Positions 12,001 through 16,060 of a stretch of 16,060 nucleotides of DNA are shown piece after piece; the stretch's first letter is position 1; every line of letters starts with the position of its first letter. The DNA is taken from the NCBI GenBank assembly GCA_037969075.1, contig JBBKWS010000108.1, positions 1-16,060 of the forward strand. The letters run 5' to 3'. Source of the DNA: Bdellovibrionales bacterium (GTDB lineage Bacteria > Bdellovibrionota > Bdellovibrionia > Bdellovibrionales > UBA840). The position numbers were made by a program.

Positions 12001-15000
12001 CTCTCATTGATAGACAACCTTGACACCTCTCGTATTGAAATGGATATGATCGATTTTCAGGGAGATGACTTAAAACATATCGATAATCGCTTGATGAGTT
12101 TAAAATTAGTAGCAAATCACCTTACCAATGCAGCCCTGTTTTCACCCGAAGGTAAGGTTTTACACATCGCTGACGTTATGTTTAAAAAACCTTTAGTTTT
12201 GCTTAGAGGCAGCTTTTCGCCGGTTACCAATATACATGTGGATATGATCGGATCTGCGCTAAAGAACATCAAAACATCTAGTAAAGATACGCCTACAGTA
12301 TTTTTAGAACTTACCATCCATGACTTAATTCAAGATGGAGAGTTTAAAAATGCCAATTTTTTAGAACGAGTGGATGTGCTACAAACCCTAGGACACCCAG
12401 TATTAATCAGTAACTTCTTTTTGTTTTTTGAATTAAAAAAATATTTAGAAAAATTCACTACTGAAACGATCTCCATGATTATGGGCGCAAATCTTTTATC
12501 AAAATTATTTGATGACGAATTTTACAAAAATGTAAACGGCGGCCTGCTGTCTGGCATTGGGCAACTAACCGAGGGAAACTCAAAAATATTGATTTACCCA
12601 TTTAAAAAATCTGACACTACTATGCTTACACTTAGCAATTATCAGCCCAACCAAACCACCGCACCCATTTTTGAACATTTAAAGCAAAAAGATGTATTTA
12701 CTGAGCTTGAGTGCCTTGAGGTATGCAAAGAAATTCACTCTGAAAACATTTTATCGATGATAAAAAACAAAGACGCCTCTTGGGAAAATTTTGTTCCAAA
12801 GAAAGTGGCGTCCTTAATTAAAGATCGCAAGTTGTTTGGTTATAAATAATTACTTTTTAAATAGTAGCTTTATAGTATTCGAATACGGTTTTGCACAAAA
12901 TGATAAGTATCCCATTAATACTACAATTACGATAGCTATTGGCAGACCGCTTGGATCAAGAGCTGCATGAACCATAAAAATATGTACAACTATTGGGGCG
13001 AGTACTACCAGGGCCAAAGGTACAAACATTCCTAATAGTAGCAATGCACCGCAGACAATCTCAGTGATTTTTAATAGTGGAAAGAAGTAACCTGTAGCTA
13101 ACATGCCAGCCATAAATGTCATCATATCTTCAGGCATATTTGGTGGTGGCGGTAATAAATTAAATAGCCCGGCAATACCGAAGATAAAAAATATTAAACC
13201 TAATAAAATGCGTGCGATGAGTGGAAGTTTTGCTTTCATGTTGTTTTCTCCTATGCAAATAGGATGATAGCTTTTTTGTAATGTGACAAGTGGTAAGTAG
13301 AATGGTGTCAGCGAAGCCTTGCGTAAAGCAAAGACTTCGCTACAAATCATTATTATTAAAACTCTACATTATATATCTCACTACCTGTAAAGACCTTCCC
13401 ATTAAGTGTAGCTGCCATAACTCGCAACTCTTTAACATAGGACGTATCATCTCCATAGTATGCAAAATGAATACGTAACGGATATACGCTGGCAATATCC
13501 TCTAAAGATCTAAATCGATTTAGTCCCATATTATCTGGCCCATCGATCATTATAATTACACTCAATCGTTTAAATTCATTAGCATCATTTCTGTAAAACA
13601 ATTCATGTGCTTGCAACTCTATAAACCTGCCAACGGCATCTAGATTCGAGCCGCCATTATCAGGACCTTGTAAGACCGAACTATAAATATCAACAAATTC
13701 ACTTTTATTAGATTTCCAATTCGTTCTCTCATTAGTAGAGCCATCCCAAGTGGCTAATTTTTGACTAAAATCTTTATCTAGATAGCGACGATGTATTGAT
13801 GAAAATATGTCCTTTCTCTTCTGCTTGTCAGGATCACTACCACCAATACTATTACTACCTGAAACATCTAGCATATATAAAGCATAATCTTGAACTATGT
13901 CTGAACCCATTGGCAGCGCTAGCAACTCTGCATTTAGAGATGCATTCGAAAAGACAGAAGCAATTTCTTTAAATACATCAGCGATGGAAGTTTCATGTTG
14001 AATCTTTGCCAATAAATAAGAGGTAAAATATCTAGTGGCCAATGAGTTAGTCTGTCCATCTGCTCTAGCTTCTCTTAAGATAATTTCGTGTAATACCAAA
14101 ATGGCTTTTTGCTGAATATCTAATTTATTCCACAGTGGAGCATCAATTACATAGCGAAACTTATTTCCGAAAATTAAGTCCATTTGAATGGCAATTTGCT
14201 TTCTTTCACAATGCTCTTCAATTCCGATTTCATAAGAGTCTAATATTTCACTTAGTACCTCACGCTCTCTCGTGAAACGCATATCACTATCAAATGCAGA
14301 CAGCCATTCGTTGTATTGTGCCGCACGAGCTGAAGAGTATTTGGCTAGGCGTACATCAATTACGTATTTCACTATCTCTTGCCAAGTCTGCGCTTCAGGG
14401 AATTCATAATAAATATCTCTTGCGTACTCACTCTCGTATTGATCTAAAATGGTGTAGGTAGTCTGCTGACCCACCTTACAGATCACAACATCCCCACCAT
14501 TACCAACTGTCCCAGCCATCGCCGGCATTATTCCAAATAATACCAATGCTCCTATTAACCATTTCATTCTTGCCCCCTTGTATTTTTTGTTAAATTAAAA
14601 AACTGTGTCGATAAACAATAAACCGATTGTTCTTTGTCTTCTTCAATCCCAAACTCTCTAATGAGCTCCTCTTGAAACCGTCTAATTTTTTCTTTGATCT
14701 GAGGTATGTTTTGTTTTGAAAAGATCAGGTGGGAGATTTGAAACTCTCTCTCCTCCACACTTTGTTGCTCCAGAGCAATTTCAGCTTTTCTTAAAATAGA
14801 TTTATGATGCATGCGAATGGCTGAGGACGGCAAATCTTGTGGAGTAATCACCCGGTACTGTGTCGGCGCCAAATCTTTATCAATCAATTGCAGTTTCTGT
14901 AAATGTAGCAATGCCGTCGTAAATTCGGCATCAGAAATATTTAGCGCTTCGCATAACTCATCGGTATTTCGCCGAAAATAAGTATTTTTGAGAGCCTCAA

Positions 15001-16060
15001 GAATTGTAAAGTGATGCCACTTAGAAATAAGTTCAAAGACCTCAAGTGTAAGCTCTTTCTGCTCGCGCGTGTCTTTTAAAAATTGCAGAGCTTTTTTTGA
15101 CGTACTTGTTGTTCGCTTAGCAGCAGAATCTACCAACATAAGAAAACACTTTTTCTCTTCATTCCCTAACTTTAATACATTAGCCATTTTCTCTGCTGCT
15201 ACTTTTGAAATACCTTTTTTACCACTGATGATCTCACTCAATGTTGAAGGACTTACCTTTAAATCACGAGCAAATGCTCTTAGAGAGTAAGCTGAGTTAA
15301 ACGTCTTACGATTATTTAACTCTTCTTGAAGAAATTCTGAAATATTATTGTGCCTTAAAATATGAACCATGCATAAAGCATTCATCAGTTAGAAAGTTTA
15401 CGCAAGATCTAAAGCGAACAAAGTGTTCGCTTCTGTTCGCTACCTGGACCGGCGCATATTCTATCAATATAGTGTTCAGACTCTTAGTGTCAGCGAAGCC
15501 TTGCGTTAAAATTAGATTCCTACCAATACTCTTTCATCAATTCGGATATCCAATTGGGCTGATACACAGAACCGCGCGGAGCAAATTCTTTTACCCATGG
15601 TTTAATATCAAGAACAGGCGTTGCATGTATCGCATCAAGCCCTTTTACATATAGTAAATTATCTTCAACCTTTAGAACTTCGCATATAGTTAGGCCGATT
15701 TGATTGGGTCTGTTTTTCCCTCGCTGTGCGAATATTCCTATTTTGGGCCAATCACTATTATTTCTAGGGTGCCTAGCCTGCTTTTCAATTTTATCCGGAT
15801 CTACCTTGTCCATATAAAATAAAATTTCAACATAAGAGAATTCTTCAAGTCCCAATAAAGCTTCGTTAGAAAATTGAACTGAATCTAACTCAATGTGAAC
15901 CGTTTCGCCGTCCCAGTGATCATCTTCTATATTTTTACGGGTAGAGTGAACTTTGCCGATAGGTTTTAGCATGATTGAATTCATCCGTTAAATATAACAC
16001 CAAGAAATTTTCAGCTACAATCATATTGAACTTAATTATTAACATCGGTGTCAGCGAAGC

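Follow-up and report, generated by a model that had tools for sequence, protein, structure and literature searches.

TIRtrons and REPtrons, in the accessible parts of the sources that describe them (PMC3733652, PMC6006769), consist of a Y1 HUH transposase gene between inverted copies of a dispersed short repeat. The REP13E12/DUF222-HNH genes of Mycobacterium tuberculosis are multicopy and rearrange the genome by homologous recombination between copies, according to the accessible text of PMC13157036. IS481/IS1202 elements of the ISAba32 group have TGT termini, duplicate 5-6 bp of target and use a Xer-site target, as given in the available portions of 10.1101/2022.12.17.520857 and PMC10045372. 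SALINs lack an integron integrase by definition (10.1101/2022.09.11.507474; PMC11641012), and attC sites have extrahelical bases and an unpaired central spacer (PMC11641012), both as stated in the text available from these sources. A text search of Di Nocera 2013 (PMC3733652) and Quentin 2018 (PMC6006769) found no mention of Bdellovibrio. Our literature search, with most subscription papers and all supplements outside it, found nothing on the motif described here or on DUF222-HNH ends, and the spread of the very large DUF222-HNH (REP13E12-like) family is unexplained in the literature searched.

Here we analyse a window of 16,060 nucleotides, contig C108 of a Bdellovibrionales genome (G000), which carries copies of a short dispersed motif. 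We give about an even chance to the reading that this site is a solo end, or recognition sequence, belonging to selfish DUF222-HNH elements of Bdellovibrionales, that it has spread in the manner of a REP or TIR repeat and that it marks hot spots of gene exchange. As far as the accessible descriptions go, the arrangement is like a TIRtron or REPtron in that an enzyme gene (DUF222-HNH, in relatives, not so for the G000 gene) lies between inverted copies of a dispersed repeat, and like TIR and REP families in that the repeat is also found between genes, near gene ends, either singly or as dimers, head-to-head or tail-to-tail. It is like REP13E12 in domain pair, copy number and association with rearrangement; however, here the motif rather than the gene is dispersed, and the accessible text of PMC13157036 describes no terminal repeats, target duplication or solo ends. 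The features of the window are as follows.

12850..13236, minus strand: doxX gene (Pfam DoxX, 36.7 bits), the fixed flank common to three strains in flank alignments
13270..13305, no strand: stretch left of site 1 that moves with the cargo, with an approximate strain-swap junction at 13270
13306..13326, plus strand: site 1, an arm of the 21-bp form TGTCA-GCGAAGC-N3-GCGTAA, with the exact 19-mer at 13306-13324 (minus-strand match)
13324..13344, minus strand: degenerate inverted arm that meets site 1 tail-to-tail (gapped score 30)
13356..14567, minus strand: cargo gene g1308, 403 aa, predicted to be probably exported, no family above cut-off
14564..15385, minus strand: cargo gene g1309, HTH and DUF4423 (TIGR02147 family)
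15412..15432, no strand: perfect 8-bp inverted repeat upstream of g1309, a possible operator, outside the motif family
15488..15508, plus strand: site 2, an arm, with the exact 19-mer at 15488-15506 (minus-strand match)
15520..15984, minus strand: TrmO-like cargo gene (Pfam TrmO_N, 92.5 bits; TIGR00104 just under cut-off)
16049..16060, plus strand: site 3, an arm cut after 12 bases by the contig end

Three direct arm copies separate single cargo units: the two that the survey had placed around g1308-g1309 are there, with a third at the contig end, past which an X1 contig extends by ~1.5 kb. Profile matches likewise agree with the earlier TrmO and DUF4423 labels. For the degenerate inverted arm, a score of 24 was reached by 0 of 3,000 random 28-mers and 27 by 1% of random 2.5-kb stretches. 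The 31 bp around site 2 are identical to the C24 copy. One paralog of g1308 (29%) lies on C172, and the 8-bp inverted repeat of g1309 is absent upstream of three paralogs. No tRNA was found within the window, and Rfam gave no match on 12800-16060 at E up to 5.

The two exact 19-mer copies in the window form a count reached in 0 of 200 shuffles. G000 has ten copies with at most two mismatches and a weaker one on C35, 78 bp from a tRNA whose anticodon reads GGA in the sequence; the reported tally of ten strong copies and a weak one beside a tRNA-Ser was reproduced by both the mismatch search and a matrix scan. G000 sites scored 36.3-39.8 bits, the C35 copy 21.5 and the next match 10.2, with a top score of at most 15.2 and three matches above 13 bits in the reversed-genome control. 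As claimed before, the motif sits between genes: 11 of 12 sites fall outside ORFs of at least 120 aa, which make up 89.8% of the genome, the single overlap being with the doxX frame where it extends upstream. Within 2.5 kb, an inverted partner was seen at only 1 of 11 sites. As to a LexA-type reading, at which no search was aimed, no ORF next to the sites looked like a core repair gene. A dif-like reading was rejected, the inner conserved parts being missing and a loose dif scan giving no clear dif.

At most G000 sites a gene starts 70-106 bp past the TGTCA end. This spacing would suit an operator or passive scar, that is, an element-derived binding site that now only regulates or rides with cargo, its turnover being ordinary recombination at long intergenic gaps. 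However, no consistent sigma-70 or sigma-54 promoter spacing past the site was seen by inspection, and the cargo genes are functionally unrelated.

Among 390 genomes the exact motif form was enriched only in G000 (10) and in G001 (4). Of 384 genomes of the order, 30 contain the 16-bp core, G002, G347 and G328 having 3 to 6 copies, so the motif cannot be called genus-specific, as had been proposed; only its exact spelling is. The outer 16 bp of the motif make up one arm of a Bdellovibrionales repeat. Full head-to-head hairpins number 10 in G328 and 3 in G347, all 13 with a 3-base spacer and no extrahelical base, and G000 copies are single arms that are not self-complementary. REPs carry a terminal tag of the GTAG or CGTC type; the G000 form starts with TGTC, those of G002, G328, G347 and Bdellovibrio do not. 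A genome scan gave three matches, two on Bdellovibrionales MAG contigs matching two G001 sites and one inside a 657-aa ORF, and a metagenome scan with the 21-mer, in a collection from which close records may be missing, gave none. The 11 matches of a viral scan were taken as chance, since nine lie within ORFs and none has a GTTA tail; in a class-wide scan, 28 of 30 fetched single matches were inside ORFs.

The hairpins of G328 and G347, the tail-to-tail dimers and the singletons match REP organisation as set out in the accessible text of PMC3733652, G000 has eight Y1 genes, and the G347 hairpins hold a second repeat similar to the repeat flanking the Y1 gene of C198. Even so, we consider it very improbable that the motif belongs to a Y1 (RAYT/TIRYT) transposase as its REP or TIR repeat. 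Whereas TIRtrons and REPtrons flank such a gene, an arm was found at the flanks of 0 of 22 Y1 loci, the best match, of 15 bits, lying away from the gene; arms also occur in G347 and G053, neither of which has a Y1 match. Nor are the G000 copies 20-40 bp palindromes as REPs are, although the G328 form is (cores of 32-38 bp).

In Bdellovibrio the repeat occurs in inverted pairs at multicopy DUF222-HNH nuclease genes, and the motif is shown to be homologous to this paired sequence. HNH passed the cut-off in 3 of 3 arm-bearing genes, and DUF222 reached or passed it in 2 of 3. A matrix built solely from G000 and G001 sites, applied to 32 Bdellovibrio DUF222-HNH loci found without use of the motif, had its best match at -272 to -256 relative to the start codon at 17 loci, whereas no 17-bp window on the reverse strand collected more than 6. 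With the same matrix, an inverted copy above 11 bits was present in the linker at 7 of 32 loci, compared with 0-2 in ten control regions. Over 37 loci the upstream and inverted copies were more alike within than across loci (p=0.0002), and scores of at least 13 were reached by 15 inverted and 2 direct copies. The pair test was weak in a second family set (10/30 inverted versus 7/30 direct), and kin are non-independent. The linker copy keeps an ACG codon in 9 of 10 cases, compared with 174 of 718 Thr codons, which indicates constraint at the DNA level.

The second arm is often inside the linker of the DUF222-HNH gene and is therefore not a simple element end; an operator would accommodate it, an intragenic second copy being compatible with autoregulation by looping. 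The same reading gains from the position of the arm in Bdellovibrio, where a conserved AT-rich block and a -35-like hexamer follow immediately downstream. Polarity is mixed, with tails inward in Bdellovibrio and outward in G363 and at L246. The DUF222-HNH genes are multicopy, patchy and at variable loci (36/44 and 37/61 genomes, with up to 25 and 41 matches). No target duplications were seen by eye around the Bdellovibrio arm pairs, and no inverted halves, as phase inversion between paired arms would give, among the matches listed. The only full-length DUF222-HNH gene of G000, on C12, has a different inverted pair, and a profile search of the 90% complete assembly found no other; the cognate gene is thus either missing from the assembly or gone. 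Relatives of the C12 protein numbered 0 in a metagenome scan with the same possible lack of close records. G347 has arms and no DUF222-HNH match. The linker arm, the mixed polarity, the C12 pair and G347 count against the solo-end reading, as does the rarity of inverted partners among G000 sites.

A DUF222-HNH gene of one relative, G363, is shown to be a discrete element: it has terminal inverted repeats, and a 5-bp duplication goes with it. The element is 1751 bp long, has this gene as its sole gene and 26-bp terminal inverted repeats, and occurs at four unrelated loci in copies 99.2, 95 and 90% alike, a 5-bp direct repeat accompanying two of the four. The inner 10 bases of its ends equal the inner 10 bp of the motif, and the tie rests on these 10 bases. 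Its preferred target is a CGTC-type REP, and solo ends exist in G363 and G368. Locus L265 has the layout of the window, with the nuclease where the window has cargo genes. Such discrete elements with duplicated targets argue against a purely regulatory site.

In TGT termini, 5-bp direct repeat, preferred target and size the G363 element is like IS481/IS1202, as far as the accessible parts of 10.1101/2022.12.17.520857 and PMC10045372 describe these. An IS481/IS1202-like DDE system acting in trans might therefore own the ends, with the HNH gene as a passenger (it is split in the two copies 99.2% alike) and the G000 sites as decayed inner halves. We regard this as distinctly unlikely. The element has no DDE transposase gene; the integrase-core profiles rve and rve_3 had no match in G363, G000, G001 or G328, and rve none in G002. 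Our reading of G363 covered 800 of 1547 kb plus selected loci, and those 800 kb held no similarity to seven rve proteins. G363-type ends were absent from the 11 rve loci fetched, and the Bdellovibrio arms vary together with the HNH locus. The window's sites differ from these insertion sequences in lacking both a duplication and the TGT terminus, the latter being absent from G000 and G001 sites alike; both points count against the solo-end reading.

A structure model of the DUF222-HNH protein (pLDDT 89.1) matched ParB, Spo0J and KorB DNA-binding domains in its N-terminal part (Z 8.3, rmsd 7.6, 122 aligned; Z 7.8, 3.5, 108; Z 7.2, 3.7, 110) and HNH nucleases in its C-terminal part. These fold scores are middling: the unrelated protein Raf1 shares first place, and at E 0.001 Foldseek found nothing. 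We infer a predicted architecture of ParB-like helix-turn-helix, ribbon-helix-helix, flexible linker and HNH. If solo ends of DUF222-HNH elements are what the motif represents, a dimeric protein would bind an arm and nick or cut beside it, and arm pairs would allow the enclosed DNA to be copied elsewhere. Solo arms would be remains of decayed elements that are still break-prone; genes and toxin-like modules coming in would therefore collect alongside, and homologous recombination in the flanks would carry them from strain to strain. On this view the window would be a hot spot of that kind, g1308-g1309 between two arms being a possible non-autonomous element.

A bolder and rather doubtful proposal is that DUF222-HNH is the mobilising enzyme of an unrecognised class of insertion element, in which the ParB-like domain would read the inverted end and HNH would cut, inserting with a 5-bp duplication and no DDE, HUH or tyrosine/serine recombinase; the same ends in the window would bracket and stack cargo genes, a gene capture parallel to integrons. 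The analysis supplies candidate cis-sites together with a protein architecture and a discrete element complete with ends and target, which makes the spread of the DUF222-HNH family directly testable. If solo sites attract new genes, they would explain accessory-gene hot spots in integron-free predatory bacteria; as mere scars they would still mark past element traffic.

Comparison with the genus relative supports the motif as a marker of accessory, strain-variable DNA: all eight comparable motif loci differ, whereas 16 of 179 background junctions do. Solo copies in G000 come and go with accessory DNA, both site and cargo being absent from the relative at 5 of 8 loci, which counts against an operator or scar. 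Two loci show a gain of DNA next to one shared site, with no second copy present. C108/C173 homology stops at the GTTA end of site 1 (13327). In run X2, C173-type core is joined to window-type cargo ~36 bp to the TGTCA side of the site, C173-type alleles and gaps extending only up to 13129; the junction at 13270 was inferred from contig ends, X1 pieces breaking at 13270 and 13299. The claim that homology breaks at the site therefore holds for variability and for the C108/C173 end, and is not borne out for a fixed point. Likewise, a cassette recombination site with fixed crossover finds no support, given the loss of sites with cargo, the gains without duplication and the X2 joint. This joint, away from the site, also favours the operator or scar, which we hold to be unlikely, if less so than the other alternatives.

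The sites resemble attC and SALINs, to the extent that the available text of 10.1101/2022.09.11.507474 and PMC11641012 describes them, in being short, dispersed, next to single accessory genes and without an adjacent integrase. The box, three variable bases and GCGTTA layout is like an attC 3' half. A half attC or tyrosine recombinase site, with cassettes entering at the tail's GTT, would also fit the 3-base mismatched spacer of the full hairpins, the single cargo units between direct copies, the C108/C173 end at the tail and the existence of a 179-aa tyrosine recombinase. We rejected an attC or integrase site and regard this reading as the least probable of all. Each site is a single arm without extrahelical bases; within 200 nt a complementary arm is lacking at 11 of 11 G000 sites (5-8 mismatches of 16), and the loop measures 4-25 nt. 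The attC R-box consensus, GTTRRRY, occurs at 1 of 11 sites. No IntI was found: TIGR02249 was over cut-off in 0 of 5 genomes (85-98% complete), nor was an integron integrase among three G000 recombinases, and no arm lies near seven tyrosine recombinase loci. Joints skipping from arm to arm were absent from the contigs of three runs of one sample. The window's bracketed cargo has no target duplication around it.

Type I toxin-antitoxin modules encode a short hydrophobic toxin ORF on a fold-back mRNA. Two families of toxin-like cargo module, A and B, are like them in having a fold-back RNA of ~195-235 nt with a predicted masked ribosome site and hydrophobic, basic peptides of 31-37 aa; they are cargo beside the site, not the site itself. 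The hydrophobic, basic ORF on a fold-back strand, reported earlier for one module, recurred across both families, all seven modules tested folding back (z -3.2 to -7.0); the C76 module is indeed present in one strain only. Seven of the nine toxin-like modules observed lie after an arm, a position that would also suit an operator or scar, and their folded part begins 105-162 bp away.

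The survey had reported a 19-bp motif between genes, and our searches bear this out: the genome (G000) holds 10 strong copies and a weaker one near a tRNA (C35), the strong copies score 36.3–39.8 bits against a maximum of 15.2 in the reversed genome, and 11 of 12 sites lie outside ORFs, which make up 89.8% of the genome. The full form on the plus strand spans 21 bp (TGTCA, GCGAAGC, three variable bases, GCGTTA). In the window the exact 19-mer occurs twice (0 of 200 shuffles), around the cargo genes g1308 and g1309:

13306–13324, exact 19-mer (site 1)
13324–13344, degenerate inverted copy, abutting site 1 tail-to-tail
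near 15400, 7-bp complement of the motif's tail
15412–15432, perfect 8-bp inverted repeat ahead of the DUF4423 regulator gene (g1309)
15488–15506, exact 19-mer (site 2)
16049–16060, third copy (site 3), truncated by the contig end after 12 bases

Beyond site 3, a contig of X1, an assembly run from sample S1, continues for ~1.5 kb. In the genus relative G001, a weaker copy, or arm (L022, on C426), lies between a tRNA and an ORF resembling an ISL3 transposase.

In G000 these solo sites are associated with accessory DNA, as the survey had proposed. The DNA beside the site differs from G001 or the second strain in the bin at 8/8 comparable loci, C35 and two G001 sites being left out for want of comparable flanks. 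Among background gene junctions, 179 could be resolved and 16 of these differ, with 10 more unresolved (Fisher p = 2e-8, where long intergenic gaps are a non-random sample and the change at C76 falls below the background's gene-size threshold). At C24, C192, C125, C86 and rplU the site is absent from the compared genome together with its cargo: the C24 locus measures ~90 bp in G001 versus 1.45 kb in G000, and at C192, where the genes abut in G001, the site sits within the insert, 7 bp from its edge. At doxX, nadA and C76 both sides of the comparison have the site and their neighbours differ.

The same survey held the site to be genus-specific, which stands for the exact spelling (enriched only in G000 and G001 among 390 genomes) but not for its 16-bp core, found in 30 of 384 genomes. 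The core forms complete head-to-head hairpins in G328, 10 across the 12 loci inspected, and longer-looped hairpins in G347, 3 across 4 loci. Several core matches in Bdellovibrio were located at genes encoding DUF222 and HNH domains, with one arm ~260 bp upstream of the start codon and an inverted second arm in the linker or directly after the stop. With a matrix built from G000 and G001 alone, and with the 5 of 37 loci found via the motif excluded, the best upstream match lay at −272 to −256 in 17/32 loci, and an inverted linker match exceeded 11 bits in 7/32, compared with 0–2 in control regions. The linker arm is conserved at the DNA level, and the two arms of a locus co-vary (pair test). 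Other DUF222-HNH subfamilies have other matched pairs, including G000's own gene on C12, though in this second family set the pair test was weak (10/30 versus 7/30). The site is a homologue of these DUF222-HNH-associated ends.

GC-rich near-palindromes akin to the C12 pair also occur on C11, C97, C159 and C65, distant from any such gene. Depending on the species, one intergenic hot spot in Bdellovibrio (L152–L171) is occupied by DUF222-HNH genes of two different subfamilies or by other single genes, or is empty. Many DUF222-HNH matches in G056 and G294 have exactly one internal stop, which may reflect decay or a programmed stop.

The one-contig genome G363 was reached through the pair test, not by motif search. 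There a DUF222-HNH gene with ends and a target duplication is mobile: a 1751-bp unit with this gene only and 26-bp inverted ends occupies four unrelated loci (copies 99.2, 95 and 90% alike), and a 5-bp direct repeat, within a CGTC-type REP, flanks 2 of the 4. The inner 10 bases of its ends match the TGTCA end of the motif. Solo ends number 3 in 800 kb (control 1) and occur in G368 as well. Locus L265 has an arm and an inverted arm, then the nuclease gene and a further arm; the window has the same order, with g1308–g1309 in the place of the nuclease gene. In the two closest copies the gene is split, which implies movement in trans or a break that preceded copying. That these are ends on which a DDE transposase acts in trans seems improbable; they resemble those described for IS1202/IS481, and the two DDE profiles searched, rve and rve_3, found no transposase in G363.

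We consider the chances even that the G000 sites are solo ends of DUF222-HNH elements. The protein would bind and cut at an arm, solo sites would serve as break-prone landing places, and filled alleles could spread by homologous recombination. Against this stand the lack of a cognate gene with this motif in the 90% complete G000 assembly, the presence of arms but not of the gene in G347, mixed arm polarity, arms within the gene itself, neither a TGT terminus nor a target duplication at the G000 sites, and no circles. An operator or passive scar we hold to be unlikely, though a minority reading of some weight. In an alignment-based model of the protein (116 sequences, pLDDT 89.1), a helical N-terminal region resembles DNA-binding domains from ParB, Spo0J and KorB (Z 7.2–8.3); the model also contains a region similar to a ribbon-helix-helix (Z 5.2), a linker without ordered structure, and an HNH domain (Z 7.8), these Z values being middling, with a Rubisco factor tied for first. 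The predicted architecture would fit a tethered dimeric nuclease that acts site-specifically.

Contigs of sample S1 point to one exchange at the window. Depth is 57 over the cargo versus 20–30 over the core (~2–3x). One contig of assembly run X2 joins a core of the second strain's type (C173) to window-type sequence from ~13270 on, a position suggested by the change spectrum, gaps and piece ends; the core is C173-type at 35 of 37 alleles among those listed, with 306 changed places versus 311 expected. Site 1 and g1308–g1309 are therefore common to cores only 84% alike, and, by this position, the strain swap is joined 36 bp beyond the TGTCA end of site 1. Among the contigs of S1, no arm-to-arm skipping joints were found. 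The bin mixes two lineages, C108 and C173, 84% alike over 13 kb, and in X1 the window's cargo is apparently common to at least three core types.

Integron and REP/TIR definitions were taken from excerpts of PMC11641012, 10.1101/2022.09.11.507474, PMC3733652 and PMC6006769. TIRtrons and REPs share the organisation seen here but differ in enzyme family, DUF222-HNH in our case; a REP of a Y1 transposase is very improbable, with no arm at 22 Y1 loci. An attC-like integron site is likewise very improbable: the sites lack a second arm, the R-box consensus appears at 1/11, and no IntI was found in five genomes (85–98% complete). Nor was an arm present at 7 tyrosine recombinase loci. Our literature search, largely confined to abstracts and listings, returned no description of such an organisation. 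This work adds the dispersed solo form of the ends, tied to cargo, as well as the matched-pair test across DUF222-HNH loci and the DUF222-HNH element with target duplication.

C186 (L036:1459–1998) encodes a tyrosine recombinase of 179 aa that stands alone and consists of just the catalytic domain; frames of similar size occur in G002 and G003. A separate dispersed repeat (C142:20206–20246, C198, C204, C18, C148, C16, C153, C2, C8, C210, C98, C24) forms a TIR-like bracket around the Y1 gene of C198 and also terminates the rplU and C24 inserts. No flanking repeat is visible at seven short Y1 (HUH) genes (C5, C130, C101, C36, C45, C157, C107).

Both families of small toxin-like modules that the survey had listed among the cargo proved to be fold-back units, with peptides of 31–37 aa that may act as toxins. 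Seven of the nine modules found follow an arm; the exceptions are on C169, with no arm within 470 bp, and C141, truncated by the contig end. Module B (C24, C86 and C169; C422 in G001) has a sigma-54-like promoter positioned so as to initiate the fold-back RNA, and module A a similar sequence that is short by one base. A second palindromic motif, TCCGA and TCGGAC separated by ~15 bases, occurs at 10 places (C7, C24, C58, C76, C86, C138, C142, C169, C192, C197) and is perhaps an activator site; four copies lie 30–80 bp past an arm's tail and one before module B.
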